A stretch of DNA of 64,000 nucleotides, taken from Mytilus trossulus. Lineage: Eukaryota. The stretch lies in NCBI RefSeq assembly GCF_036588685.1, contig NC_086384.1, positions 45,260,001 to 45,324,000 on the forward strand. The letters run 5' to 3'. The translations under genes and the position numbers were made by a program. Position 1 is the first letter of the stretch, and each line of letters begins with the position of its first letter. The notes under the pieces were generated by a model. The model searched no databases and was not told where the DNA came from. It was given only the letters and a program-made list of their open reading frames with translations. Shown one piece after another: positions 20,121 through 63,892 of this stretch.

Positions 20121-20320
20121 TGTTATATATTTAGATATATATGTTTTATATATGTGTGATTCAGTTTTATATGTTTTACGGAATTGTACAAGTGATGTCC
20201 GGAAACGCCTTTTTGTTTTACGCTCTCTTTTATTAAATGTCGTCAACGTAAGACGTGTTTTTATTGCTTGAGCTAGTCCCAACCCAAAATCTATAATTAC
20301 AACGAGGCGATATCGTTACA
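20121..20320 (+). repeat. 5' LTR (200 bp)
   Basis: tgttatatat...gatatcgttaca, identical by eye to 30176-30375. Confidence 0.97.
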
Positions 20321-20328
20321 TGGTGGAG
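20321..20328 (+). promoter_or_regulatory. Primer-binding site, tRNA-Ala-like (8-nt match only)
   Basis: TGGTGGAG directly after the LTR, complementary to a ...CUCCACCA tRNA 3' end. Confidence 0.6.
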
Positions 20329-22605
20329 TGACCCTAAAAAGATTATTAGGAGACAATTTAATGAGAATATTTGCTGTTTTTAAAAGACATTCATCGAAAG
20401 AGACTAGTTTGTCAAAATTTCGTTTCTGTTGTGACTTTAGGTATTTAAATTCCATGACTCAACACTTTTCTTATTCAATTCCTGATTTACAAGATCTCAC
20501 TGAATCGTTTTCTACAAAAACACCGAATTTTCTAACTTCAATAGACTTATCATCTGGATTTTTTCAGTTACCGATTTCAAAAGATAGTCAACGTTACACA
20601 GCCTTTAATACCTGTTTTGGTACTTTCAAATTTTTAAGATTACCGATGGGACTGAGCTCATCCCCAGCATCTTTTCAACTGTTGATGGATAAAGTACTTA
20701 AAGGATTAACTTTTAAATCATGTTTGTGCTATCTTGATGATATCCTTATTGCATCCGAAACATTCGATCAGCATATTGAAGATTTACGGAACGTTTTTCA
20801 GAGACTTTCGAATGCTGGTTTAAAGCTGGGACCCAAAAAGTGTACCTTTGCTCAGAACTCTTGTATATACTTAGGTCATAAAATTTCAAATAAAGGAATT
20901 GAGCCGCCACCGGACCGTGTTCAGGCCATCGTTGATTATCCTATACCAAAAAATGTGAAAGAGTTGCGCCGCCTTGTTGGTTTATTTAATTGGTTTCGGA
21001 AATACATAAAAAATTTCAGTGCTGAAATGGAACCTCTGACGAGACTTTTAAAGAAATATGAACGTTTTAGCTGGACCGATGAACAACAGCGTGCATTTCA
21101 GAATGTTAAATCACTTCTGCTAGATTCTCCTATTCTGGCCTTTCCAAACTTCAATTTACCATTTAGACTTGCTGTAGACTCTTGTTGTAAGGGGATTGGT
21201 TACGTGCTATATCAGAAAATGAGCGAAACTGATGAAATTCGTGTTATACGATTCGGATCTAAGGCACTTAGTAAATGGCAGAAATCATATGGCCCAACAA
21301 AGCTAGAATTACTTGGCATGGTTACCGCCGTTTTAGAATGTTCATCATACCTACGAACAAAGCCTTTTGTTATAGAATGCGACCACCAAGCATTGAAACC
21401 GCTATTTGGCAACCAACTGAAAGGCGCCATTTATGAGCGATGGATTGCTATTTTGCAGCAATATAATTTCGAAATTCAATACAAACCTGCGAGGGAAATG
21501 CAAGTTCCGGATGCTTTGTCACGATGCACGCAAGAGACTAGTAACGCCTTCGAAAGTCCAGACGAGCAAGATCCGTACTTCCCATATGAACCGGAAAATA
21601 CAGGTCAAATAATTGTTCCAGGAGGTATTCAATTGACCACTTTATTACATGACTCGGATACTAGCGACAGTAAAAATTTACAATTGAACAATATTGCTAT
21701 GTCTGTGACAGTTCCGATGTACACCGTCGATAATAGTGTTTCACGCAAAAATGTATTATTACCGCCACAAAATGAATATGATGCCGACACTGAAGACATT
21801 GATCAACAGTTTGCACGTGTAGCGAAGAAACGTAAACCGCGAAAAACGATACAACTTTACCCACGAAAGAAATATAACGTAGTGCAAAAATCAGAACCTT
21901 TGAATAAACTGACAGATTGTGACTCAAAGCATACTCAAATATCGATTTCTGATCAGTTGAACCAGTTTGAAAAAGTTTATCAACAAATCACTCAGTCGAC
22001 TAAACCAAAATCGAATCAAATATTTGATCAAAGTACTGATAGTGCTACTTCTCAATGTGATGCAACATTTTTCAATCAAAGCACTGAAAGTTCTCAAAAT
22101 GAAAAGTCAGACAAAATATTTAATCAAAGCACTGCAAGTGATAATGTACAGGATTTAGACAAAATATTTGAGCAAACGACTGACGTTAATGAAACGCAGG
22201 TTACTTATATTAGTGAAAATGAAATCACGAACAATTATACCAACAAACGAGACTCTGATACTGGTATTGATAGTGATCCAAATGTAAATATTTTGAAATC
22301 GATTGACATTTTTAGGGAAAAGGGATTTAGTATAGAGTCGATACATGAATTGCAGCGCAATGACACAAACTGCAGACCGTTAATTCAGTATCTTGAAAGA
22401 AACGAACTATCAAAGCTGCAGAAAGAAGCCCGCAGACTTCTTTTATTAATACCAAATTTTCACTTGATCAATGGAATATTATTTCATACACGAAATAGGA
22501 AATCAGTGCGTGCAAAAACAATGAATAATTTTCAGCTAGTTGTCCCGGAAATTTCACTGAAAACAATAATTGCATTACATCATGATTCGACATTAGGTGG
22601 ACATT
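20328..22605 (+). pseudogene. pol: Gypsy pol 5' part: N-truncated RT, RNase H, long linker, start of integrase zinc finger
   Basis: FRFCCDFRYLN, IDLSSGFFQ, LPMGL, YLDD, LAVDSCCKGIG, ELELLG-like KLELLG, CDHQAL, VPDALSR, ending HHDSTLGGH at the insertion point. Confidence 0.93.
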
Positions 22606-22947
22606 CACTGAAAAAAATACCTAGTAACTATTACTAGTTTGGCTAGTACTTCATTAAAAGTCCCTAGTAGATTATCAAACAACTAATTAGACTAGTATGT
22701 TTACTATCGTGGATGCCTCGTATTACCAGGAACCAGCTGTGCAACTGATAACAGGATTTCCCGCCGGACGATATCATATTCGCGTGGCCAAGTTCTGTTG
22801 TACATGAAGTGATGGCCGCAATCAAACGAATAAAGAACCTGGGTGATTTTTGGCCTGATTCATTGAAAAGCTGTAAGTATTTTAACTAAGTTGTGTTTTA
22901 TTTTATCGGCTTAACTTGTTTACACAAAAAAAGAACCACATCATTTA

Positions 22948-24935: not shown

Positions 24936-26978
24936 CATGAAAACTTTTATATAATGAACATTTATATTTATATCTATTGATGTTTCAGTACAAGTATGAT
25001 TATTTGTTTTTGTTGTGATATATGACATACATGTATAGTATAAACAATTTTGAGAAAGTGATATCTGTAAACATGCCAGTTCCTTGAAAATGTTAACAAA
25101 CTTTTGTGTCAACTTATTCATTCATCTAAAAAGTATTACAAGCCAATATTATAATTCAATAGATTAAGACTATAAAATCAGTTTTGACCTAGTCCTGTTC
25201 AAGTTTATTAAGGTCAAAATAAGATAAAACAAAGTTTCATAATATATAATTTCAATGTAGGAGCAAACGGTGAAAATAATTTAGATCCTAGTGCTATATG
25301 AGATGGGTGACATGTATTTAGATCCTGGTGCTCTAGAGGGGTGACATTGAGTTGGATCTGTTTGCTCAAACTAAAATTTACAGTGCTTTAAAAAATAATA
25401 AGTGATCATGCTTTATAAAGTTATAAACTGTTAGGTACAATCTGTATACTTACTTCCTGACAATTTTATTTTTACTTCTAAGTATTTTAAAATGTAAACT
25501 TTGAAGTCATTGGAAGTAGGAAGACATAAAATAACTGATAAATCTTACTTTGTTCTTTTTTTTTTAAATAAATATTCGAATGAGTGTTTATTCATTTTGG
25601 TTTTGCAGGGAGAGCGGATTTTTTTAAACAGGGGCCCATACAATAACTAGATGGGTTGTAATTTATTAAACTGACGTTTTAAATTTTTTTCATTGAAATA
25701 ACTTTAGAATTGTAAACTAAATATTCTAAATACATGTATGAAGTATTGTTAATATTGATTAGGGAACAGCTTATTAGTGGTTTTGAAACGTGAATTTAAA
25801 TGGTTACTTTGAAGTAAATTGAGAACATGTTACCCATTTGTTTGTAATGTTGTTGGTTGGACACCTTTTCCTATAATTGAAAACAACTACGTTGTATAGT
25901 CTACTCAAATGTATTGTGCATCTTATGTAAATAAAATATGTAGGATTTATCTTAAAAATTATTATGCTGAACCTCACACACTGACAAATTTAGTAAGGTA
26001 ACTGTAAAGCTTTCAGGCCTAACATGGCGAAATTTAAGTGAGAATATATGAAAGAGAAAACAGCAAGAACAAGGAGTGAAAAGAAATAGTTTTGTCTTTA
26101 TTGACATTGAAGGTCAATTATCACTACTTATGCAACAAATTTTTATCTGCATTCATTACCAACCAAAGTATACATTATAAGTCAATTCGTATTGAGGATA
26201 TTCTGACCTATTGCGAAGTTTTTGCTAGTCTTTTCAGGTCATTGTTGTATATTTATCTTTTACAATTATTGCTATAGTCATTGTGTTTCTTGAATAGAAA
26301 GATCACAAACACATATTATACCTACCTAGAAGCTTCCTGATTCCTGATGATTTTACTGAGTGATGGATTAAGGCCCCTTTCATGGGGAAAATTCATTGAT
26401 AATACAGTGAAAAATTGAACTATGACTTGAGTGAGTCCCCTTTTATGGCAGTCCCCCTTCTTAAAAATATTGGATTTATCATTTTGAACTTTGTACCAGT
26501 ACAATAGAAAAAAGCTGTTAGAAATTGCACTGCTATGAAACTATGCAGAAAAGAATCCTCAACTCAGTAACATTGCTACATGTAGGTACGAAAAAGAACC
26601 ACACGAGGATGACCTGGTACAAGTACTTATAGCTAGTAAAGTTACTAGCTGAAGGAGGTATTCCTACTAGGAAATGTTTGTAGGGTTACTTGAAGCTAGT
26701 AGAATCACTAGTCTTACCATGTATATGCCACTAGGAGGACCTAGTTATGTTACTAAAAGGTAGTAAAAATACTTATTCAGACTAGTAAAGTCACCAAGCA
26801 GTCTAGCAAAATTACTAGGGACTCCTAGTATAATTACTAAGTAGCCTAGTAAGTTTACTTTGATGGCCTAGTATAGTTACTAAGTAGGCTAGTAAATATA
26901 CTTCTGGCCTAGTAATCTCATGGACAGTAAGTTTACTAGTTAACCTAGTAGAGATTACTAGTTATTTTTTTCAGTGTT

Positions 26979-28471
26979 GTGGTATACAAAATACTCTTGA
27001 TTTAATCCAAGAACAGTACTATTTTCCGAATTTGAGTGAAAAAGTAACTGATTATATTCGTTCATGTCATGAATGTCAAAGCAGGAAAAATACCACACTA
27101 AAAACAAAAGCGTCCATTACATCATTTCCTACGCCGTGTGCACCATTTGAAGTTTGGGAAATGGATCTTCAATATGGACCCGTCCCTGTCTCTCGAAGTG
27201 GCAATTCTTACATTTTTACTGCAATTGACTTATTTAGTAAATACATGTTTGCAGAGCCGATACCTAACACTGATCCGTTAACAGTCGGAAATGCTCTTTT
27301 TAAATTAGTCACGCAATTTGGAGTTTGCCGAACTATCGTTAGTGATCAAGGATCGGAATTTATTGGTAAATGTTTCCGAGAAGTTTGTCGTTTATTGGAT
27401 ATTATTCAGGAATATACCCCTAGCTTCGCTCATCATTGTTTGGGAGCATGTGAGAGACCTCACAGAACTTTATCGGAAAGACTAACACCGTTTATTGTAA
27501 AAGGAAAACCATGGGAGGATGTATTACCGGGAATAGTATTTTCGATGAACAATACGCCAAACCAAAGTGTTGGATTTTCGCCTTTTGAAATAGTGTATGG
27601 GAAAAGACCCCACTTTCCGTTGTCTTTGCATATTAAGGACACAGACTTTTCGTCTGTACCTAAAGATTGTCATGCGTATCTCAAACAGCAACGTGAAAAG
27701 TTGAACCTTATACGTACTGAAGTCGAGAAAAATGCTATTAATTCACAAGTTAAAATGGTTGACCGAGTAAATAAGGACAAAATACCAAATATTTCATTTC
27801 ATGAAAACGACTATGTTTATTTGTCGAAAGAACCAACCGGGTCAGGACAAAAATTTAAGAATAGATTTGCCGGTCCATATGTGATCTCAAGAGTAAATAG
27901 TCCTCATATGTACACCTTAAAGGACCCAAACACGAACAAAATATTATCACAGCCAGTGCATATCAATAGACTGAAATCTGCGTATGTGAGAAAACCAAAT
28001 CCGTCAAAATATTTTATGGACCCTGTTCATACGAAACTAGACGATGTTAAAGTGCAAGATTATACATCTATGAATGAGGATAATACGCCTGTTCAGGAAA
28101 ACCAAAACACCAATTATGACAATTTATCTGATAATACTCCCGACACTGATAATACAAGCCAATCAGACAATATTTTGATTGTTGAAAATAGTACAACCAT
28201 GTCTCGCCCAAAGCGCACTAAGAAATTACCCGCTAGGTTCAAAGATAATAATTTCATTCATTTTAGTGAGGTTGACGTATCTAGCGATTCAAAGTCTGCA
28301 AGTCAGTTAAAAGTGAAAAGATTCCTAGCGCACAAAATAATGAATGGAAAAAGAACGTATCTTGCTCATATAGTTGGTGAACCAGCCCAACACGCTATGT
28401 GGCTTCAAGAACATCAGCTTGGACCGAAAGCCAAGGCCAAATTAACATCTCGACCTCCGCCAAAAATTTAA
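26979..28471 (+). pseudogene. pol: Gypsy pol 3' part: integrase (HHCC completion, DDE core, GPY/F, chromodomain-like tail)
   Basis: CGIQNT...CHEC, WEMDL, SDQGSEF, CERPH, FAGPY...VHINRLK; rejoins the 5' part in frame (GGA CAT TGT GGT) once the insertion and one TT are removed. Confidence 0.93.
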
Positions 28472-38345: not shown

Positions 38346-39289
38346 TTTCTTAGTGCACTAATATTCAAATTGAAACGCAATTGTTTTACTATAACAGGTA
38401 CTGAATTTCAAGATCAAATAACAATCAACGATTTAATAGAGTATTGTGTAAAATCGTTTCACCTGTCTATTCAAATACTATTTAGTAGTCATTTAAAGGT
38501 ATGTATTAATTAAAACAATTGAAACAAAGCAAAAGAAACAAAACAATACAGAAAAGTAAAACGATACAAATATAATTGTTCCAACTAAAAGGATTGCTTA
38601 ATTAAATGAAAAGCTCTAGTTGTATTTTACAAAGTGAAGGCAAGAGCAGAACGACACACCGTGGATACCACTTACAACAATTTTAAGTTGATTTGATTGA
38701 TTATATTAAATTGGATAAAATATTAATAAAACAGGTAGGAATCTCATTAAACTGCAATATTCAGATATTTTCTTTATAAAATGCTAGAACTTAAGGAAAG
38801 GGATGACAATGAAAAATGTTCATGTAGACCTCCCTTAGAAACATGCAGGATTAAATATACCATTGTGAGAAAAAATAACCAGTTGACTTTAAAACGTAAG
38901 CAGCTGCAATATCATGGATATACATATTTATATCAAAATGAATTAAGATATACCAGTTAGAAAGAGAACAAATTGCAATTGAATTTTAAATAGGCAACTA
39001 ATAAACATATAAATAACAGACATCATTTCACTTGAAGGTTAGTAAGTTAGATTAACGGTATCAAACATCATCTGATACCGAGAAATTAATGCATACTAGT
39101 ATTATAAAGTCTTTACACTAAATCCATTGATCGTGTACTGGATGATAATTTAGTCTGGGAAAACACAACTATTCATAATTGGGTTTTAACTAGCTTTCGG
39201 TAACAACGAGTTCTCTTAGATCACCGCCTTGTGTATTTTGTTTAGTAATTTAGAAAAAAAACACATTTATTTTCATTAATTTTTCAGAG

Positions 39290-41074
39290 ATGGGTCAAGA
39301 AAAACTCGAGTGCGACGCCTGCAAGCGAGTGGAAACGTCAGATATCGCTTACTGGTGGTGCGGTGAATGTTCCGAAAATTTATGTCACGATTGTCGAAAA
39401 TGTCACGAAAAAATGAAAACAACCACAAGTCACTCTGTTATTTCTATTGATGAATATCTAAAACTGAAACCGGAAATAGCATTACATCCGATTCATTGTA
39501 ATAAACACGATAGATCGATAGACCTGTATTGTATCAATCATGATATGGCTCTTTGTCGGTTATGCATGACTGAAAATCATCGAGGCTGTTTGAAAATGCT
39601 GCCTATAGAAGATGCCGCACAAAACTTTAAGAAATCTCTACACCTTAAACAAACGCTTGAAAGCCTTGAAAGTATGCGAGAAATGTTACAACGACTTGCT
39701 GAAGATAGACTAGAAAATATATCGGACATTGAACAATCGGAAAAACTCGTAAAGGAGAAGATATCGACAGTTCGAGACAGATTGATTAAACACATAGAGG
39801 CATTACATGAACAAATTCAAGAAGAAGTGTCTAGCGTTGTCTTCCAAAAAACACTCCAACTCAAGCGTCAACACAATGACATTCTAGAGCAACAAGAAAC
39901 AAACAAACTCTGGACCAAAAATATCGAAACGATGATAGCGATGGGTTCCGATATGAACTTGTTTTTGATGTCACAAAAGTATAGAGACGTTCGGAAAGGT
40001 CAGGAAGTTTTCGTGAATGAAAATCAGAGACAATCCCAACGATATCATATATCGTATCACGAAACTGAAAACATGCTCGGCAGTATTAAATCATTTGGAT
40101 ACATCAATGTCACAACCACACAGTCGAAGGTTGCTATGCCGACCGATGAACCGATGCCTCTGAAGTATTTCCCGCTAGATATGAACAGGTTGCGCATGCG
40201 AGACGGTTCAGCTTTACCGCCATTACCGTTGAGTAGATTAACGAATCGAACAAAATTCTCTCGAACTACCATGGGAACAAATAAAACACTAAAGCCTGAA
40301 AACTTCCGCTTGAAAAAGAAAATTGAGGTACCGAAAACGAGAAAAAATCTTGATTATGTATGGATTACAGGCATTCAATACATTCCTACGACGAACAAAA
40401 TTCTCGTCTGCAACAGGAACGATAACCACCTTTACCTGTATGATGATTATGGTAGAAAAATTAAAGAAGTGCCACTTAACACAAGACCATGGGGAATAAC
40501 TTTACTCATGGGAACTCAAAGTGCTGTTGTTACACTACCAGAAATTAAAGCTATACAATTCATCAATATCATGACATTTGCTCCAGCTAAAACGGCTAAT
40601 GTAGGAACATGGTGCGCAGGTATCACCAACGTGAGCAATCAGCTCATCATTGGTTGCGATGGTTGCTTTAAAGTCTTAGATGCTAGTGGTAACCTTAAAC
40701 ATACGGTACCAGTCAATGGCGGAAGAATATGGTATATTCATGCCTGTATTAACGGGACGATTGTTTATAGCGATACGTACAAGGTTTATGGTGTCACCAT
40801 TGATGGAGGAGAGATTTTCAAGTATGAAAGTGAAGATATGGATTGTTCTGAGGGGATTACGACCGATTATAATGATAACATTTATGTAGCTGGAAGGGAT
40901 TCCAATGATATTCACCAACTTTCTCTGAATGGCGAACTCTTACGTATCATACTGAGTAAATCGGATGGACTTGTTAAGCCGTACGCGCTTCATTTTCGAA
41001 AAAAGGCAAGACAACTTTACGTCTCGTTTGACGGGAAGTTTATTGCTGTATATGACGTCAAAAATAGTAGATGA
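39290..41074 (+). CDS. RING-less TRIM-like protein (B-box1, B-box2, coiled coil, NHL-like beta-propeller), 594 aa, single coding exon
   Basis: CDAC..CGEC..LCHDC..H..H and CNKH..C.NH..C..C..H..C B-boxes, heptad region, PWGI / SEGITTD..NIYVAG / PYALHF propeller motifs; splice acceptor ttttcAG 2 nt before the ATG implies a non-coding upstream exon. Confidence 0.93.
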   Translation: MGQEKLECDACKRVETSDIAYWWCGECSENLCHDCRKCHEKMKTTTSHSVISIDEYLKLKPEIALHPIHCNKHDRSIDLYCINHDMALCRLCMTENHRGCLKMLPIEDAAQNFKKSLHLKQTLESLESMREMLQRLAEDRLENISDIEQSEKLVKEKISTVRDRLIKHIEALHEQIQEEVSSVVFQKTLQLKRQHNDILEQQETNKLWTKNIETMIAMGSDMNLFLMSQKYRDVRKGQEVFVNENQRQSQRYHISYHETENMLGSIKSFGYINVTTTQSKVAMPTDEPMPLKYFPLDMNRLRMRDGSALPPLPLSRLTNRTKFSRTTMGTNKTLKPENFRLKKKIEVPKTRKNLDYVWITGIQYIPTTNKILVCNRNDNHLYLYDDYGRKIKEVPLNTRPWGITLLMGTQSAVVTLPEIKAIQFINIMTFAPAKTANVGTWCAGITNVSNQLIIGCDGCFKVLDASGNLKHTVPVNGGRIWYIHACINGTIVYSDTYKVYGVTIDGGEIFKYESEDMDCSEGITTDYNDNIYVAGRDSNDIHQLSLNGELLRIILSKSDGLVKPYALHFRKKARQLYVSFDGKFIAVYDVKNSR

Positions 41075-42497: not shown

Positions 42498-43854
42498 AGA
42501 TATTTAGTCTTTCTTTTTGCTAATTAATTTTAAATAAGTCAATACCGCTGGTTGAAGACTGCTTCCATTCCAGGAACTATATCTGGTATGGAAATATAAA
42601 TTGTATGTATAGAAAAGCAAAAGGTGTTATGAGTTTGCTTAAGAACATGGTCCACAGGATATTATAAATCTATTGGATACTTCACTTTTGATTTTCCCAA
42701 CACAATTCCAACAAAATAAGTATAACGACGAAAACACATAACACTACATAGCATGAAAACTAAATATTGATAACTTGTGTTCTCTTCGAAAATCCTGATA
42801 TTTTGGCGCGAATTTAATTTTATGACGCATTTTCGTCGAAATAGTCACCGGCTTCGATAATATTGGTACCATTTAATGTCCTCAACGACAAAGCGAATCT
42901 ACATAAGTCATTGTATTTGAATATATATAGCTGTTACTTACGATATATGTACAAGTGTCCAGAGGGCAGCACTAAACACCCCAAGCATAACCCCAGCCAG
43001 TTCCTGGTCATCGATACATCCATCTATATAGAATAGTATACGATGCACAGTACAGTTTTCCTCCATTTTGTTCCTTTACTGAATTTCTAACAAATATGAT
43101 TCACTTAAAGTACAAAAGACACTTCCATTTTCTTACTCATTTTTAAGTATGATTTATGATTTTTATCGTTGCAAATTCCATTGCAGATTTAAAAACAAAG
43201 TAAAATTAATCCGCAATTTGTTGCACATATAAAAGTAAATGTCAGTTTTCTTTTTCCAATACGTACATATGCTCACACATAAAAAGATGAAAACATAAGA
43301 GTAATAACCTTCCAACGTTCTAACTATTTTTAATATGAGTTTATTGTAAAATAACAACAAACTTCAAATACACATTGATCAATAATAATTTTCAGTTAAT
43401 TTAACATACGAACAAATATAATTTGACCAGTTTCTGTAAAGTACCATATGGTACATAATGTAAATATATATAAAAACCACATTTCCTCTTCAGAGATTTC
43501 AGTTATTATATCCGATTTGACACCTTTATGACAAAACTAGGATGCCAACATTATGTTGACAAAATTCTTATATATATATTTGTATGAGCTTTGGGACCGG
43601 CTGTTGCAATACTTAATCCCTATTCAATACATAAGTCGAAGGGCAAATAACACACAATCGCATACAGTCTTAAACGATACGAAAACGGAAAAAATCTTTA
43701 ATGATATGAAAAGCAACAGATTGGGACTTTTTCATCGATTCTAATCGATCTTAAACGTATGACGTCAAGACCTTATTATAATAATAGCTTGTACTCAGCT
43801 TGAGGAAGTAGATGAAGTAATGATCGATAATTGAAAAGAGCGAAAAAATAAATA

Positions 43855-46800
43855 GTTGACACAACCAAGGATGTATAGTGTAATGTTGAAGCATCCAAGA
43901 TCGTAGAGTGAAATGTTGACACAACCAAGGGAGTAGAGTGGAATGTTAACACATCCAAGGGTGAATATAGAGTGGAATGTTGACACAACCAAGGGGGAAA
44001 ACTAATTTGTTGACACATCCAAGGGAGAATAGTAGAATGTTGAAGCATCCAAGCGTGTAGAATGCATCCAATCGTGTAGAGTGAATTGTTAACACAACCA
44101 CTGACGAAAAAAGAATATGTTGACACATCCAAAGAAAAAGAGTAGAATGTTGAAACACCTAAGGGTGTATAGTAAATTATTTTTAAATCAATTAAGGGTG
44201 AAGAGAGGAAGGTTGAAGCATTAAAGAGCGTAGAAATGAATGTTTAAACACACAAGGGTGTAGAGTTGAAGGTTTAAACACATAAAGATGAAGAGTGGAA
44301 TGTGAATGTTTAAACACAAAAGGGTGTAGAGGGGAATGTTAGAAAACACTAGGGTGTAGAGTGGAATCATAAAACACACAACGGAGTAGAGTGGAATGTT
44401 AAAACACACAAGGGTGTAGAGTGGAATGTCAAAACACACAAGGGGATAGAGTGGAATGTTGAAACACACAAGGGTGTAGTGTGGAATGTCTAAACACATA
44501 AGAGTGTAGAGTGAAATGTTAAAACACACAGGGGTGTAGAGTGAATTGTTTAAACACACAAGGATGTAGAGTGGAATATTTAAACACACAAGGGTGTAGA
44601 GTGGAATGTTTAAACACACAAGGATGTAGAGTGGAATGTTAAATCACACAAGGATGTAGAGTGGAATGTTTAACCACACAAGGATGTAGAGTGAAATGTT
44701 TAAACACACAAGGATGTAGAGTGAAAGGTTTAAACACACAGGGTGTAGATTGGAATGTTCATACACACACGGGTGTAGAGTGGAAGGTTTAAATACACAA
44801 GGATGTAGAGTGAAAGGTTAAAACATCCAATAGATAAGAGTGGAATGTTTAAACCCACAAGGGAATAGAGTGGAATGTCAAAATACATAAAGGTGTAGAG
44901 TGGAATGTTGAAACACACAATGATGTAGAGTGGAATATCAAAACACACAAGGGTGTAGAGTGGAATGTTGAAACACACAAGGGTGTAGAGTGGTATGTTA
45001 AAACACACAAGGGTGTAGAGTGGAATGTTTAAACACACAAGGATTTAGAGTGGTATGTTAAAACACACAAGGGTGTAGAGTGGAATGTTTAAACACATAA
45101 GGATGTATAGTGGTATGTTAAATCACACAAGGGTGTAGAGTGGAATGTTTAAACACATAAGGATGTATAGTGGAATGTTAAAACACACAAGGATGTAGAG
45201 TGCGGAAATGTTGAAACACACAAGGGTGTAGACAGGAATGTTGAAACACACAAGGGTGAAGAGTGGAATCATAAAACATTCAAGGGTGTAGAGTGTAATG
45301 TTATAACACAAAAGGGCGTAGAGTGGAATGTCAAAACACACAAGGGTGTAGAGGGGAATGTCAAAACACATAATGGTATAGAGTGGAATGTCAAAACACA
45401 CAAGGATGCAGAGTGGAATGTTGAAACACACAAGGGTGAAGAGCGAAATGTGTAAACACACAAGGATGTAGAGTGGTAGGTTTAAACACACAAAGGTGCA
45501 GAGTGGATTTTTTTTAACACAGAAGGGTGTAGAGTGGAAGGTTTAAATACACAAGGATGTAGAGTGGAAATTTTAAACACACAATGATGTAGAATGGAAG
45601 GTTTAAACACACAGGGGTTAAGAGTGGAATGTTTAAACACACAAGGATGTAAAGTGGAATGTTTAAACACACAAGGATGTAGAGTGAAATGTTTAAATAC
45701 ACAAGGATGTAGAGTGGAAGGTTTAAACACACAAGGGTGAAGATTTGAATGTTTAAACAAACAAGGGTGTAGAGAGGAATGTTTAAACACCCAAGGGGGA
45801 AGAGTGGATTGCCTTAACACACAAGGGTATAGAGTGGAATGTTGAAACACACAAGGATGTAGATTGAAATGTTTAAACACACAATGATGTAGAATGGAAG
45901 GTTTAAACACACAGGGGTGTAGATTGGAATGTTTATACACACAAGGGTGTAGAGTGTACGGTTTAAACACACAAGGATGTAGAGTGAAATGTTAAAACAT
46001 CCAATAGATAAGAGTGGAATGTTAAACACACAAGGATGTAGAGTGGTATGTTAAAACACATAAGGGTGTGGAGAAAGGTTGAAACACACAAGGGTGTAGA
46101 GTGGAAGGTTTAAACACACAAGGGAATAGAGTGAAATGTTGAATAATCCAAGAGATAAGAGTGGAATGTTTTAACACACAAGGATGTAGAGTGAAAGGTT
46201 GAAACACACAAGGATGTAGAGTGGGAGGTTTAAACACACAAGGTGTAGAGTGGAAGGTTTAAACACATAAGGATGAAGAGTGGATTGTTTTAACACACAA
46301 GGATGTAGAGTGGTATGTTAAAACACATAAGGGTGTGGAGAAAGGTTGAAACACACAAGGGTGTAGAGTGAAATGTTGAATAATCCAAGAGATAAGAGTG
46401 GAATGTTTTAACACACAAGGATGTAGAGTGAAAGGTTGAAACACACAAGGATGTAGAGTGGGAGGTTTAAACACACAAGGATGTAGAGTGGGAGGTTTAA
46501 ACACACAAGGGTGAAGAGTGGAAGGTTTAAACACATAAGGATGAAGAGTGGATTGTTTTAACACACAAGGGTTTAGAGTGGAATGTTGAAACACAAAGGG
46601 TGTAGAGTGGAATGTTTAAACACACAAGGACGTAGAGTGAAATTTTTAAACACACAAGGATGAAGAGTGGAAGGTTTAAACACACAAGGGTGTAGAGTGG
46701 AATGTTTAAACATACAAGTATGTAGAGTGGAATGTTTAAACACCAAGGATGTAGAGTGAAATGTTTAAACACACAAGGATGTAGAGTGGAATGTTTAAAC

Positions 46801-49322
46801 ACACAAGGATGTAGAGTGAAATGTTTAAACACACAAGGATGTAGAGTAGAATGTTTAAACCCACAAGGATGTAGAGTGGAATGTTTAAACACACAAGGAT
46901 GTAGAGTGAAATGTTTAAACACACAAGGATGTAGAGTGGAAGGTTTAAACACACAAGGATGTAGAGTAGAATGTTTAAACCCACAAGGATGTAGAGTGGA
47001 ATGTTTAAACACACAAGGATGTAGAGTGGAAGGTTTAAACACACAAGGGTGTAGATTGGAATGTTTATACACACAAGAATGTAGAGTGGAAGGTTTAAAC
47101 ACACAAGGATGTAGAGTAAAATGTTTAAACACACAAGGGTGTAGAGTGGAATGTCAAAACACACAAGGATGCAGAGTGGAATGTTGAAACACACAAGGGT
47201 AAAAAGCGAAATGTGTAAACACACAAGGATGTAGAGTGGTAGGTTTAAACACACAAAGGTGCAGAGTGGATTTTTTTTAACACAGAAGGGTGTAGAGTGG
47301 AAGGTTTAAATACACAAGGATGTAGAGTGGAAAGTTTAAACACACAATGATGTAGAATGGAAGGTTTAAACACACAGGGGTTAAGAGTGGAATGTTTAAA
47401 CACACAAGGATGTAAAGTGGAATGTTTAAACACACAAGGATGTAGAGTGAAATGTTTAAATACACAAGGATGTAGAGTGGAAGGTTTAAACACACAAGGG
47501 TGAAGATTTGAATGTTTAAACAAACAAGGGTGTAGAGTGGAATGTTTAAACACCCAAGGGGGAAGAGTGGATTGCCTTAACACACAAGGGTATAGAGTGG
47601 AATGTTGAAACACACAAGGATGTAGATTGAAATGTTTAAACACACAATGATGTAGAATGGAAGGTTTAAACACACAGGGGTGTAGATTGGAATGTTTATA
47701 CACACAAGGGTGTAGAGTGTACGGTTTAAACACACAAGGATGTAGAGTGAAATGTTAAAACATCCAATAGATAAGAGTGGAATGTTAAACACACAAGGAT
47801 GTAGAGTGGTATGTTAAAACACATAAGGGTGTGGAGAAAGGTTGAAACACACAAGGGTGTAGAGTGGAAGGTTTAAACACACAAGGGAATAGAGTGAAAT
47901 GTTGAATAATCCAAGAGATAAGAGTGGAATGTTTTAACACACAAGGATGTAGAGTGTAAGGTTGAAACACACAAGGATGTAGAGTGGGAGGTTTAAACAC
48001 ACAAGGGTGTAGAGTGGAAGGTTTAAACACATAAGGATGAAGAGTGGATTGTTTTAACACACAAGGATGTAGAGTGGTATGTTAAAACACATAAGGGTGT
48101 GGAGAAAGGTTGAAACACACAAGGGTGTAGAGTGAAATGTTGAATAATCCAAGAGATAAGAGTGGAATGTTTTAACACACAAGGATGTAGAGTGAAAGGT
48201 TGAAACACACAAGGATGTAGAGTGGGAGGTTTAAACACACAAGGATGTAGAGTCGGAGGTTTAAACACACAAGGGTGAAGAGTGGAAGGTTTAAACACAT
48301 AAGGATGAAGAGTGGATTGTTTTAACACACAAGGGTTTAGAGTGGAATGTTGAAACACAAAGGGTGTAGAGTGGAATGTTTAAACACACAAGGACGTAGA
48401 GTGAAATTTTTAAACACACAAGGATGAAGAGTGGAAGGTTTAAACACACAAGGGTGTAGAGTGGAATGTTTAAACATACAAGTATGTAGAGTGGAATGTT
48501 TAAACACCAAGGATGTAGAGTGAAATGTTTAAACACACAAGGATGTAGAGTGGAATGTTTAAACACACAAGGATGTAGAGTGAAATGTTTAAACACACAA
48601 GGATGTAGAGTAGAATGTTTAAACCCACAAGGATGTAGAGTGGAATGTTTAAACACACAAGGATGTAGAGTGAAATGTTTAAACACACAAGGATGTAGAG
48701 TGGAAGGTTTAAACACACAAGGATGTAGAGTAGAATGTTTAAACCCACAAGGATGTAGAGTGGAATGTTTAAACACACAAGGATGTAGAGTGAAATGTTT
48801 AAACACACAAGGATGTAGAGTGGAAGGTTTAAACACACAAGGGTGTAGATTGGAATGTTTATACACACAAGAATGTAGAGTGGAAGGTTTAAACACACAA
48901 GGATGTAGAGTAAAATGTTTAAACACACAAGGGTGTAGAGTGGAATGTTTAAACACACAAGGATGCAGAGTGTAATGTTTAAACACACAAGGATGTAGAG
49001 TGGAATGTTTAAACACACAAGGATGTAGAGTGAAATATTTCAACACACAAGGATGTAGAGTGGAAGGTTTAAACACACAAGAGTGTAGATTCGAATGTTT
49101 ATACACACAAGGGTGCAATATGGAAGGTTTAAACATACAAGGATGTAGAGTGGAATGTTAAAACACATAAGGGTGTAGAGTGAAAGGTTGAAACACACGA
49201 GGGTTTACAGTGGAAGGTTGAAACACACAAGGGTGTAGAATGTAATGTTCAAACACACGAGGGTTTACAGTGGAAGGTTTAAACATACAAGAGATAAAAG
49301 TGGAATGTTGAAACACACAAGG
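43855..49322. repeat. 30-bp satellite array (~5.5 kb; AAACACACAAGGATGTAGAGTGGAATGTTT) with higher-order duplication
   Basis: Period 30; degenerate left edge; blocks repeated at a 1763-1764 bp offset. Confidence 0.97.
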
Positions 49323-50294
49323 GTAAATACTTGAATAGTGATCTGTTGAAACTCCTTAGAGTGAAGAGTTGAATGTTATCCATGTTGAAGGCCATGCAAG
49401 TACAGTTGTTTACATCCTCAGCATATGGTCTCTGTAAGATATTAGTCTCATCGGCAAACAGCTAATATTTTGTTACTTTACTCGTATGATAAAAATTGTT
49501 CGTGTGTTCGTATATTCATACGATCTTACAAAACTTATAAATGGATATTTGCTTGAAATAACCAACACGACGGGTTCCACAAGAGTGATAATACTTTTAA
49601 CACTTCGGAGTTTATTTCCTGTTCCTGAATGCAAAGTGAGGGATGGTGGTGTATGTCATTCCTCTGCTCTTATCAAGGGGGACATAACACATAAACAGTT
49701 TGGGTTTGTTACAAACATCTTTAATTTATTTACCACAAAATCCCCTTTTTCTATTAAATGCAACGACACAGTAAATAATAATGCTTTGCACGAAGTTTCC
49801 CTTGGTATATGTACAACAAGGCCAATCTCTGGTATTCGTTATGTTTGCTGTTTTGGTACTGTTGCAGTGTGAAAATTTCGTAATTCACATGGCTACAGGT
49901 TCAATTAAAAATTAAAATACACATTTTTGAGAAAGAAAACACACTCGTAATGTCGTCTTTTAGAGAATTTTAGAGCTGTAGTACAAAAGCTCGTTTACAA
50001 AGAATTTCATTATTATATTGTTTTGCCATTTTTTTGGAGGAAAGTTTGCTCAGCCTTTACAGTTGAAGGGCGTAACGTGTCTAATTCATGTTCACCGATT
50101 TGACTCAAATTCTTATATTTCATTTATAACATACTAAATTGGATATCCAAATAAAAAAAAACCAATAATTTTTTTATTTGATTTATAACATACTAAAATG
50201 TATATATCCAAGTTCTAAAAAGTCTAAGTTAAACAATTTACGATGCATGGGTCGATAATGTGTATCAGCATTTTGTGTGTATTTTGATTCACTT

Positions 50295-51915
50295 GTTGTC
50301 GAGTATCGAGTTGCAAGTTACAAAAGTCGAGTTTCGAGTTACGATAGTCGAGTTGCGAGTTACAATTGTCGAGTTGCGAGTTATGAAAGTCGAGTTACAA
50401 GTTACGAAAGTCGATTTGCGAGTTACGAAAGTCGAGTTGCGAGTAACGAAAGTAGAGTTGCGAGTTACGAAAGTCGAGTTGCGAGTTACGGAAGTCGAGT
50501 TGCGAGTTAAGAAAGTCGAGTTGCGAGTTACGAAATTCGAATTGCGGTTTACAAAAGTCGAGTTGCGAGTTACAAAAGTCGAGTTGCAAGTTACAAAATT
50601 CAAATTGCGTAAAAATTGGCAAACGAAACTATTTAAATTTTTGGTGTAACTGTTTAACATTTTGGAATGATAATTGCTTATAGAATTGTATACAGTATTG
50701 TTGAATTATTTTTTGTTTGTTTGGACTTCATCTGCGTCTCTTGTAAAAACAAAATGAATTTCTTACATAATCACTACGTATAATAGTATTTTCTGAAGAA
50801 GCAGATAGCCTTTTAAAACACAGCGGTAAACCGCTTTTTAATTTCGAGAAGAAACTGATCTTCTGATTGAAGATCGGACTCGTAGGTGCAAAATATGCGA
50901 ATTTGATAGCCCCATTTCAAACCTTTCAGATTGTTTGGAAGAAGCATCTGGACAAAAAAGTGTTCGACCGAATTGACAAGACAATGTCGTAGTTGGTTTA
51001 GTAGATGGTCTAACAATTGTATAGACCGATTTACGCACAACAAAACTGAACTTATATAAAACACGGAGACCTTTCTGACAAATCTTTCTTTCTTTAACTG
51101 TTAAATTATGGTTTTTATTTTTATTGGGCCATTTTCGTTTGTGCACGCAAGTGCGTTGTTGTGTCAATAGTAGCTACGCAATGAAATCCTCATTTTCAAA
51201 CGCATTGACTGTTGTTATTTAGCGATAGTCTATACACTTGTCTTCGTTTAAATGACTTATGGTGTATAAACCCCAAAAATGATTCATAAATCCAAACGAT
51301 TTTCCAATGAGCAACTCTTTTCTCCATGATTTTGTAATGTGTTATAATCCGTTAAGGGTACATTAAATAAGATCGATCTCGTCCTTTAAGGATATATTTT
51401 TTTTTCTTCAAATACTTCCAGAACCTAACTTATATTAGACTCTTATAAATAAGTTTAACATACAATGTATAACTCTTTCAAATCCCGCAAACAGGGGAAT
51501 AACTATATATATTCGGGTACATGCATGCTTTGTTTATCAAATGTCAATCAAACCTGAAATTCGAAGTCAAAAATATTTTTGTAACTCGCAACTTGACTTT
51601 CTTAATTAGCAACTCCACTTTTGTAACTCGCAACTCGACTTTCTTAACTCGAAACTCGACATTCTTAACTGGCAACTCGACTTTCTTAACTCGAAACTCG
51701 ACATTCTTAACTGGCAACTCGACTTTTGTAACTCGCAACTCGACTTTCTTAACTCGAAACTCGACATTTTTAACTCGCAACTCGACTTTTGTAACTCGCA
51801 ACTCAACATTCTTAACTCGCAACTCGACTTTCGTTACTGGCAATTCGACTTTCTTAACTCGCAACTCGACTTTCCAACTCGCAACTTGCAACTCGACGAT
51901 AAGAACCCTCCTAAA
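50295..51915. mobile_element. Foldback-like element: two inverted arrays of a 21-bp unit around a ~950-bp unique core
   Basis: (GTCGAGTTGCGAGTTACGAAA)n at 50298-50610 and its reverse complement at 51560-51897. Confidence 0.7.
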
Positions 51916-59379: not shown

Positions 59380-60348
59380 TAATACTATATATATAAATAG
59401 AAATTATCACCGCTAGTTCACGTTTAACGTGATGATGAAAATTTCTACAGAAGTAATCACATGTTAGTGCAGAAAGTTAGAAAAAAATAATTTAACATCA
59501 TGTTTAAAATCATACAAGGCGCTTATAAACAATATGATTAATCGATTATACCAATGTTATGAATATAAATTACATATGTATTACTTTTTTTCGCTTGTTA
59601 TCTGGCTAAAATGTCATAATTTGCTAACAATTAAATCAATAATATACACTAATAGTAATATTTAAGAACACCAACATGCATAAAAAAAAATGCAAGCTAA
59701 TTTGTCACTGAGTAATGTGGGTTTCTTTTTTAATACTCCTTCAATGCTGATTTTCAACTTGTTGAGCCGTTATTTATTTTAACAACATGAAATTCGATCG
59801 GTTAAGATTTCTTGTGTTGAGTAAATTGTTTTGTTAATTTGTTTGACATCATCAGACAATCAGAAAAGCCTCTATTTCTTCGGAGGATACAATATTAAAT
59901 CAAAACATAGATGAAATAAATAAATCACAAAATTTTTTAAATCTTGGTATAAAATTCTGAGAACATTATGTCTACATTTCTACATTGTGTACGTACGACT
60001 TTTCTACAGTTTCAAACAGAGCACATTTCGATATATCTAAAAAGACTTAAAATTTGTAGAAACTGAATATTTATGCATTTTTACCCTTTTTGTAACCCTT
60101 AAATGACGATGTCGACGAATTCATATGATGCGTAACACAGAACATGTAAAAAGTATCTTTCAATGACTATCAGCACCAAAAGTCTACAAAACTTGAATTC
60201 GTATGATGCGTCACACAGAATAACATGTAAAGAGTATCTTTTAGTGACTGTCAGCACCAAAAGTCCACAAAACTTGATAATACTTGAATATTTGTTTTAG
60301 CTCAGAAAGTACATGTGTTTAATAGTGTTCAAAACTAGCCCATGTAAA

Positions 60349-61453
60349 TTAACTTGTAAACCATTCCGTATTTACTTGTTTAACTTCAAATCCTACATCT
60401 GTGTCTTTTCCAACCAGCCATTTTGATTTTACACAGATACCCAGTGTTGAAATAGAAGTAAATTCCCAATACGGAGATGACGGAAATTCCCGAACGGAAC
60501 CTGCCGGATAAAAATGACCTACATTTCGTATCGATTGCGCAGATATTTCTGTATTATTTGAATTGAAACCTAAATTATCAGCTCGAATCGCCATTATATG
60601 GTTATCATTTTCTTTAACTATAATTCTCACTGAACTCCCGTGTGATCTCACGGAATCAATCAAGTCTTCTTTTGATTTTTTAGTTACAGATTTTGAGTTG
60701 AAGGTTGATATGGCTCGTTTCCAATGCCTGGTATCCATGAACCACTTGACCGAATGTCTTCCCCCGGACATTCCTTTGTATTTGATATCACCTACAAATG
60801 GACGGATTGTTTCTACTTCGCCAGTCGTCGCAACATGTTGCCAGAACCAGTACACATCTTCTTGAAAAACATCAACGTCTTTTTTCGAAACATGGCCCAA
60901 TAATTGAGCACTAACTTGTCCATCTTTAATAAGAAGATTATCTGCTTCAATACTGTATGGACCTACAACAATTCTAACTCGATGTCCAGATAATATTCCA
61001 GCTTTTAAAAGATCAAGAGATCCGTCAATTGGCTCACCGTTGCCATCATGACTATAGGCTAACTGCCAACACGAATCAGCATACCACTTAATGTCAAACT
61101 TTGACTTGGAATGGCCAGAATTTTTATGTTCCCCAATACTCCATCTTGACATATCGACCTCACCTTCAGACGACCATAACGTAAACCACCAAAATGCGTC
61201 ATTAGTAAATACAGCATGTTTATCGACTGCGACTTGACTAACAGCCCAAATGCTTTCTGCACCAATAGTGTTTTTTCGTTTGGAATATGCAGCATGCTCT
61301 ATACGTGTGGCGTATCCGAGTCCTTCATCGACAACCCGTAAGTCTGATCCGGAAGCAACGGCGTCGAAAAGATTCGATTTCGGACCACAAGCAATCTCAT
61401 TGGTGCAGTATATTGGAGTTGTTCCGTTCTTATAGTCATCACAATTGATAGTC
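60349..61453 (-). CDS. Terminal exon of a protein made of tandem ~130-aa repeats of an unnamed domain (three repeats in this exon)
   Basis: tttctcgattttAG acceptor (61455-61454), phase 2, matching the upstream donor (AG|G = Arg); open to TAA; recurring GS..L...V..G..VR, YW.F...TTG.V, W..G and W(F/Y).D motifs. Confidence 0.88.
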
Positions 61454-62669
61454 CTAAAATCGAGAAACATATCAATTGTGATTTGAATATTATCTCTCTT
61501 ACGTGTATAGTAATCAGCATTGTCCCTTATTGTCATTGTATTATAATATTTAGTTGAAGACCGGTTTAACTCATTGTATGAACCATGTTACTGTTTTTTG
61601 TGTCGTTGTTTGATAATATTTAGTTGAAGACCGGTTTAACTCATTGTATGAACCATTTTACTGTTTTTTGTGTCGTTGTTTGATAATGTTTAGTTGAAGA
61701 CAATTTTAACTCACCGTATGAAACAGGCTAATCGCGTTCTCATTGTTGTACGATATCATTTAGATTCACCATATGATGTACCACGATATGTTTTGTCGTT
61801 GCATGAGTACATTTAGTTGAAGACAGGTTTAATTCATCGTATGAACCATGCTATTGGTAATTTTTGTCGTTGCATGAGTACATTTAGTTGAAGACAGGTT
61901 TAATTCATCGTATGAACCATGCTATTGGTATTTTTTGTCGTTGCATGAGTACATTTAGTTAAAGACAGTCAGGTTTAATTCATCGTATGAACCATGCTAT
62001 TGGTAATTTTTGTCGTTGCATGAGTACATTTAGTTGAAGACAGGTTTAATTCATCGTATGAACCATGCTATTGGTAATTTTTGTCGTTGCATGAGTACAT
62101 TTAGTTGAAGACAGGTTTAATTCATCGTATGAACCATGCTATTGGTAATTTTTGTCGTTGCATGAGTACATTTAGTTGAAGACAGGTTTAATTCATCGTA
62201 TGAACCATGTTATTGGTAATTTTTGTCGTTGCATGAGTACATTTAGTTAAAGACAGGTTTAATTCATCGTATGAACCATGTTATTGGTAATTTTTGTCGT
62301 TGCATGAGTACATTTAGTTGAAGACAGGTTTAATTCATCGTATGAACCATGCTATTGGTATTTTTTGTCGTTGCATGAGTACATTTAGTTAAAGACAGGT
62401 TTAATTCATCGTATGAACCATGCTATTGGTAATTTTTGTCGTTGCATGAGTACATTTAGTTGAAGACAGGTTTAATTCATCGTATGAACCATGCTATTGG
62501 TAATTTTTGTTGTTGCACGAGTACATTTAGTTGAAGACAGGTTTAATTCATCGTATGAACCATGCTATTGGTAATTTTTGTCGTTGCATGAGTACATTTA
62601 GTTGAAATCAGGTTTAATTTACCGTATAAACCATGTTATTGGTATTTGTTGTCGTTGTATGAGAACATT

Positions 62670-63047
62670 GTACTGTTATACCACTGTCCCAGGTTAGGGG
62701 GAGGGTTGGGATCCCGCTAACATGTTTAACCCCCGCCCGCCACATTATTTAGGTATGTGCCTGTCCCAAGTCAGGAGCCTGTAATTCAGTGGTTGTCGTT
62801 TGTTTAAGTGTTACATATTTGTTTTTGGTTTATTTTTTTATATAAATCAGGCCGTTAGTTTTCTCGTTTGAATAGTTTTACATTGTCTTATCGGGTACCT
62901 TTTATAGCTGACTATGCGGTATGGTCTTTGTTCATTGTTGAAGGCCGTGAAGTCCGTACGGTGACCTATAGTTGTTAATGTCTGTGTCATTTTGGTCTTT
63001 TGTGGACAGTTGTCTCATTGGCAATCCTATCACATCGTCTTTTTTAT
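62670..63047 (+). mobile_element. Family A repeat inserted in the 71-bp minisatellite
   Basis: Interrupts a unit at gagaacatt|...|ttagttgaa. Confidence 0.8.
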
Positions 63048-63212
63048 ATTTAGTTGAAAACAGGTTTTACTCACCTAATGAACCATGTTATAGTCATTAT
63101 TGTCGTTGTATGAGAACATTTAGTTGAAGACAGGCTTAACCCACCTTATGAACAAGGTTATTGATATTTGTTGTTGCTGTATGAGAACATATAGTTAAAG
63201 ACATGTTTAATT

Positions 63213-63372
63213 TTTTTGGAATTTTGGTCCTCAATGCTCTTCACCTTCGTACTTTATTTGGCCTTTTTAACTTTTTTTGGATTCGAGCGTCACTGTTTAG
63301 TCTTTGAGACAAAACGCGCGTCTGGCGTATATACAAAATTTAGTCCTGGTATCTATGATGAGTTTATTTAAT
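63213..63372 (+). mobile_element. Retrozyme/Penelope-associated repeat fragment with a mutated type I hammerhead; other fragments on the minus strand at 31465-31540 and 58655-58870
   Basis: gagcgtca-ctgtttag-tctttgagac-aaaac-gcgcg-tc-tggcgt keeps the hammerhead topology with core substitutions; apparent tttaatt target duplication. Confidence 0.6.
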
Positions 63373-63476
63373 TCACCGTATGAGGACAAGGTTAATCTAA
63401 TTCTTGTCTATGTAAGAGAACATTTAGTTGAAGAATTGAAAATATTTTAAATTGGTGGAAGACAGGTTTTACTCAC

Positions 63477-63843
63477 CTAATGAACCACGTGATTGTCATT
63501 CTTGTCGTTGTATCTGCTTCCGGTTTGCTATGGTCGCCAACATACCAGCGAGCTTGGTTTACATGACCAGTAGTACAGATTAAGAGAAATCTCCAGTAAA
63601 CATATCTTGTAAATGTATCCCACGAATCTTTGCCAATATGCATAATTGATTGACAGCAGATTTCATTGTCAGTAACGTAAGCATTGTTTACATCCATTAG
63701 AACATCTGCACCAAAATCTAATTTATGGACTTTAATGCGCATGTCAGCACCAGATTGCACATATTTTATTAATTGTTCTTTGCTGCCACGTGAATTTCCA
63801 TAATCATCGGTTTCCAGAACAGACTTCCATTTACTGTTACAAA
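63477..63843 (-). CDS. Penultimate exon of the same repeat-domain gene (one repeat); gene starts beyond the right edge
   Basis: ctttttgtacAG acceptor (phase 1), CNSKWKSV...GSKEQLIKYVQSGADMR...YWRFLLICTTGHV...WFIR, TTAG|GTGAGT donor at 63476. Confidence 0.88.
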
Positions 63844-63892
63844 CTGTACAAAAAGACATGTTTAATGAAATCATTGTTTTAAGAACATCAAG

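Follow-up and report, generated by a model that had tools for sequence, protein, structure and literature searches.

Why should a minisatellite that consists of copies of its host gene's own exon/5' splice-site junction be dominated by a unit in which the splice donor is dead? The question is posed by the last intron of LOC134692661 of the mussel Mytilus trossulus, a gene on the minus strand of the window (the whole 64-kb stretch of AT-rich mussel DNA that was analysed). An earlier interpretation made from the letters alone (the sequence-only reading) had offered several answers: selection allowed only a donor-dead unit to expand, or the array acts as a U1 decoy or an AS-NMD switch. Here we weigh these against neutral decay followed by a recent expansion.

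The host gene and its last intron

The array lies between the last two coding exons of the gene, which are delimited as follows.

63477..63843, minus strand: penultimate coding exon of LOC134692661, ending ...TWFI-AG (phase 2); RNA contigs cover 63476-63846
61454..63476, minus strand: last intron of LOC134692661, 2023 nt, GT..AG, absent from the spliced contigs X6 record 17 and X7 record 24
60349..61453, minus strand: coding portion of the last exon, in which the split codon is followed by 367 codons and a stop

The spliced frame of the two exons reproduces the last 489 residues of XP_063409198/XP_063409199 (489/489 match), and 476 residues match when it is compared with four M. edulis and M. 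galloprovincialis records; the last exon (61453-60349) matches Mytilus proteins at up to 98%. The protein belongs to a bivalve family with relatives in other mussels, in oysters and in one ark clam. It carries four internal tryptophan-rich repeats of ~120 residues each (P0032 and relatives) and, judged by eye, an N-terminal hydrophobic stretch. Pfam returned only a sub-threshold match for one of the two exon peptides and no family above threshold, and the ESM Atlas gave no usable match for the protein. With an alignment of 7 proteins as query, JGI metagenome contigs yielded 0 relatives among 154 pattern matches and hence no orthologous intron.

The authentic donor reads TAG/GTGAGT (the slash marks the exon-intron boundary) with its GT at 63476, and the acceptor AG ends at 61454. 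The last 37 nt of the penultimate exon are the exonic part of the repeat unit. Read-through of the real donor runs into AGG TGA, whose stop codon occupies 63475-63473, just as the sequence-only reading had predicted. A genomic open reading frame of M. galloprovincialis type (P0034) runs ...WFIRLV through the junction without a stop there, so the donor sequence must differ in that allele or species. An 81-bp duplication (window 60117-60277) lies 3' of the stop codon and is likely part of the 3' UTR, since RNA contigs run 728-812 nt beyond 60300.

Four of 24 sequencing runs were compared with the window, namely X1 and X4 (DNA) and X6 and X7 (RNA type, two studies; both were taken as RNA by guess, and their contigs leave out precisely the intron). 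In X6 and in X7 alike, one contig has 61452 and 63476 at adjoining record positions, which is the predicted junction with one ambiguous G. The spliced contigs of two studies thus join at the donor that had been assumed to be in use, and the most upstream donor is the one mainly used in both RNA assemblies (2/2), minor use being invisible in contigs. Among the matches listed for X6 and X7 there is no other junction of the penultimate exon, in contigs that by their nature drop rare isoforms.

A minisatellite built from the junction

Used as an ungapped query against both strands of the window, the 55-nt junction finds 17 matches within the intron (32-50 of 55 positions identical), and no position elsewhere in the 64 kb, on either strand, reaches 30/55. 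This bears out the proposal that the unit derives from the gene's own exon/5' splice-site junction. Adding two more, degenerate copies, with donors at 63376 and 61769, brings the number to 19 intronic copies of a 70-71-bp unit, homologous to exon end plus donor, together with one partial copy. From the junction to the acceptor the intron is built as follows.

63416..63513, minus strand: first monomer, which straddles the junction and has an additional 28 nt between two CTTC words
63183..63415, minus strand: copy with the weak donor ACG/GTGAAT (63376), split by an inserted repeat; its tail is 63212-63183
63213..63365, no strand assigned: inserted high-copy repeat 1, borders approximate, placed by DNA-run depth and border comparison
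63112..63182, minus strand: copy with AAG/GTGGGT (63144), identical in X1 record 4
63046..63111, minus strand: copy nearest to the real junction, TAG/GTGAGT (63074), tail broken by repeat 2, identical in X1 record 4
62668..63045, no strand assigned: inserted high-copy repeat 2, with 8 further matches in the window
62590..62660, minus strand: copy with the weak donor ACG/GTAAAT (62622), closest kin of the central block (62/71)
61805..62589, minus strand: homogeneous block of 11 copies, 71 bp each except one of 75 bp, ACG/ATGAAT throughout, mean identity 98%
61753..61804, minus strand: short degenerate copy with ATG/GTGAAT (61769)
61682..61752, minus strand: diverged copy with ACG/GTGAGT (61714)
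61542..61681, minus strand: two 70-bp copies, 68/70 alike, both ACA/ATGAGT (61644, 61574)
61454..61541, minus strand: partial unit, then the unique intron end and the acceptor

A tandem period of 71 holds for 12.3 copies at 95% over 61791-62669 and is flanked by arrays of 70-71 bp, head-to-tail. Units cover 1343 of the 2023 nt of the intron (66%), and the two inserted high-copy repeats take 531 nt (26% of the intron), which corrects the earlier statement that about 20 copies fill most of it. What had been quoted as the 71-bp unit comprises 57 of the 71 bases, and the remaining 14 correspond to intron sequence at 63429-63416. Copies have diverged by up to ~30%. The GT is retained in 6/19 copies and reads AT in 13/19. 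One GT copy has the exact 9-mer of the real donor; this copy (63074) is 51/56 identical to the real junction and groups with it in the unit tree (91/90). The eleven central copies differ among themselves by just five point or indel variants, and ACG/ATGAAT in 11/11 confirms that the dominant unit is donor-dead. All five GT sites named by the sequence-only reading (63074, 63144, 63376, 62622 and 61714) are correct. Its statement that copies at the array edges keep GT holds for these five and fails for the two 3'-most copies (61644 and 61574), and a sixth GT at 61769 had been missed. A decayed partial duplication may account for the 28 additional bases in the first monomer. Within this monomer DNA run X1 has a variant at 63457, CTTCCACC -> CTTCAACC on the gene strand, which is nearer to the unit.

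Could the unit be a dispersed repeat, or an assembly artefact, that merely resembles the junction? The intron does hold two dispersed repeats, and the central block is spanned by no contig. Depth in DNA run X4 tells the two kinds of sequence apart: the unit contig has a depth of 462 vs 53 for the exons (~9-fold), while the inserted repeats reach ~1e6 (1e4-1e5-fold), which marks the unit as local rather than dispersed. (Across the DNA runs the inserted repeats have depths of ~1e5-1e6 vs 10 and 53 for exons.) Contigs collapse the central block, and their depth is no measure of copy number. Furthermore, the exonic part of the unit encodes part of a protein whose family is shared with other mussels and oysters, nothing else in the 64 kb matches, and edge copies are unchanged in X1, a run that differs from the window at 1/1273 and 1/577 bases: X1 carries 63007-63238 with donors 63074 and 63144 unchanged, and its record 2 is identical over 61543-61642, which includes AT copy 61574. 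X4 shows 0 differences in two long pieces and may not be independent of the window. Two bins (61664-61787 and 61912-62159) have no DNA cover in X1 or X4, which is not evidence either way because repeats collapse and records were filtered. An origin of the unit outside this gene, as a dispersed family or an artefact, is hardly credible on these data. Since the two inserted repeats sit inside units, they would postdate the older copies.

Other repeats occur in the window. A 5.2-kb satellite at 43850-49324 repeats a 30-bp unit 173 times and is strongly strand-skewed; no link to an exon was seen at its ends. Two 21-bp arrays of ~14.5 copies (50306-50609 and 51582-51886) lie 1 kb apart in opposite orientation and would seem to resemble a transposon with subterminal repeats. 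The plus strand has three long open frames, at 20277-22637 (786 codons), 26888-28471 (527 codons) and 39254-41074 (606 codons).

Pseudo-donors, U1 pairing and mRNA decay

Donor strength was scored as a crude duplex energy against the consensus 5' end of U1. On this scale the real donor pairs at -12.2, the 3' AT pair at -2.6 and the central AT unit at +1.1 kcal/mol, the last being weaker than the median random 11-mer (-0.5 kcal/mol). With no predicted U1 pairing, the homogeneous block is not a simple U1 sponge and would make a poor decoy. The decoy proposal is therefore contradicted for the variable part of the array. Three pseudo-donors are strong (-9.4 to -12.2 kcal/mol), at about the top 0.3% of the 7877 GT sites in the window.

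As a rule, nonsense-mediated decay (NMD) acts when a stop codon lies upstream of the final junction by more than 50-55 nt. Use of any GT pseudo-donor would place the read-through stop 96-1758 nt before the resulting last junction, beyond that distance. The read-through product is a likely NMD target, which would make any leak cheap to clean up and does not in itself imply regulation, of which no sign was seen.

In each of the first two copies an AG has arisen behind a pyrimidine-rich stretch and a GT stands at the end, which makes them candidate micro-exons on the minus strand (63407-63377, 31 nt; 63176-63145, 32 nt), both with in-frame stops. Neither was seen in the RNA contigs of X6 and X7. 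A 100-nt contig of X7 (record 25, depth 2.8) lies within the intron at 61576-61669 with 3 differences and ceases to match at position -1 of copy 61574. An allele whose donor state differs, a different register of the unit or a rare splice form could explain it.

A regulatory role, with an AS-NMD switch supplied by the GT copies or by the two micro-exons that break the frame, or with U1 bound in proportion to array length, could draw on the three strong pseudo-donors and on the candidate exons of 31 and 32 nt with their stops. What speaks against it is the lack of predicted U1 pairing throughout the homogeneous block and the absence of any alternative junction among the matches listed in 2/2 RNA assemblies, which as contigs drop rare forms. 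We regard such a role as very improbable. As to the AS-NMD switch suggested before, its premature stop on read-through is real, and no alternative junction appears among those same matches.

Founder mutation or selective filter

The eleven central AT copies are 98% alike and have to be counted as one event. Under a selective account, copies with a working donor leak into stop-bearing mRNA, so that only donor-dead variants reach high copy number. Several observations are in line with it. AT is found in 13 of the 19 copies, including both groups of adjacent near-identical copies; of the states of the central unit that are absent from all GT copies there are two, and +1A is the sole one that is common to the 3' AT pair; with any downstream donor, the last junction comes 96 nt or more after a stop; and an amplified intact donor, present in many copies, is found nowhere in the LOC134692661 array. 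A post-hoc test of the association between AT and recent duplication gives, at best, p=0.036, if two independent hits are assumed. The same test gives p=0.11 when a third duplication, that of the junction/63074 pair, is included, and 0.14-0.29 for one origin.

All four combinations of states at +1 and +5 are present among the copies, so that one of the two positions changed twice or was converted. Such conflicts between columns are common in the array (52/171 informative pairs; 11/31 near pairs). The 5' half of copy 61574 is closest to the central units (30/37), which fits a shared origin of the AT groups. With 9/12 inner branches of the unit tree open, one and two origins of +1A are not separated. 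The link between AT and duplication deserves mention but is too slight to bear a selective claim, which is weakly supported.

Other observations speak against a filter. Compared with the lineage majority, 13/72 cells of the donor 9-mer differ vs 63/361 in the rest of the core (8 lineages, p=0.87; the test is rough, the majority having been built from the same 8 rows), so that the donor columns are without excess change. GT is kept in 6/8 lineages vs 4.6-5.4 expected under neutral decay. The chance that a hit falls in the GT is 0.24 given the 9 differences between the block and its nearest GT kin, and 0.14 given 5. Copy 63074, potentially the strongest competitor, has kept its -12.2 kcal/mol donor, in X1 as well. 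The three GT copies with +5A reach only -5.4 to -5.6 kcal/mol, near the top 5% of random GT sites, and the central block would therefore be a weak donor even with GT. Add to this that one or two events are all there is to explain, and that human arrays with up to 25 pseudo-sites are reported (PMC1557585), and a filter of this kind becomes unlikely. The claim that selection let only the dead unit expand comes down to one, at most two, mutational events. Its wider form is about as unlikely: mussel junction minisatellites would amplify only after the donor has been switched off, +1 G>A would have arisen twice, each time licensing duplication, and the filter would be seen genome-wide as loss of GT in amplified units. 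We consider it most probable, at roughly 0.75, that GT>AT in the commonest unit is a neutral founder mutation that was carried by a recent expansion.

The history of the array under the founder account can be sketched. A tandem duplication of ~71-98 bp across the junction would have started it; unequal exchange or conversion would then have multiplied the units, and copies would have decayed equally fast inside and outside the donor. The last to be amplified was probably one copy whose donor had already been weakened by +5 G>A and killed by +1 G>A. If splicing works as in human F7, the most upstream donor would be the one picked by the spliceosome, so that downstream copies, intact or not, should cost little. 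Any leak would be removed by nonsense-mediated decay owing to the AGG TGA stop.

The analogy is to a known class. Minisatellites whose first monomer spans an exon-intron boundary are described in human genes by Borensztajn et al. (2006, PMC1557585). In F7 intron 7 a 37-bp VNTR has 5-9 monomers, in which 4-8 identical pseudo-sites go unused and the first site is used (PMC1557585). As in F7, the mussel array opens with a monomer lying across the boundary, the intron repeats the donor, and splicing in the RNA contigs mainly uses the donor furthest upstream. Unlike in F7, with its identical functional pseudo-sites and 4 exonic bases, the mussel unit has 37 exonic bases, its 19 copies differ by up to ~30% and 13 of them read AT, and two repeats are inserted. 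LAMIN B2 (LMNB2; 100 bp, 10-15 copies) and PDGF intron 4 (81 bp, 16-18 copies), which both use the authentic site only, have the same layout as the mussel array and are close to it in unit size and copy number (PMC1557585). Two pseudo-sites are also reported to be used in interferon-inducible 6-16 (IFI6) intron 2, out of 25, and in CBS intron 13, out of 15-20 (PMC1557585), whereas none is seen in use in the mussel RNA contigs. Judged by these two genes, a leak, and a cost, are possible. The dominance of a donor-dead unit sets the mussel array apart; no such unit is described in the passage of PMC1557585 that lists the human arrays. In human duplicated genes, tandem repeats at exon-intron boundaries can change how a gene is built and spliced (De Grassi and Ciccarelli 2009, PMC2812944); those repeats give rise to alternative transcripts and new introns, whereas no changed transcript is seen in the mussel RNA contigs. 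The accessible text of PMC10078293 has nothing on such a layout, and the papers listed by a search of open-access literature include no report of the mussel locus or of a donor-dead dominant unit.

The mussel array belongs to the known F7-type class and is an ordinary example of it. It extends a known oddity to a bivalve and fits a preference for the first donor outside mammals, scanning for the first donor having been tested in mammalian cells and not in molluscs. With intact and dead donor copies of differing age side by side, it is a handy case for studying splicing constraint on minisatellite turnover, a subject for which one locus is insufficient. If a filter against working donors were true genome-wide, it would amount to a measurable cost of cryptic donors on the evolution of non-coding repeats.
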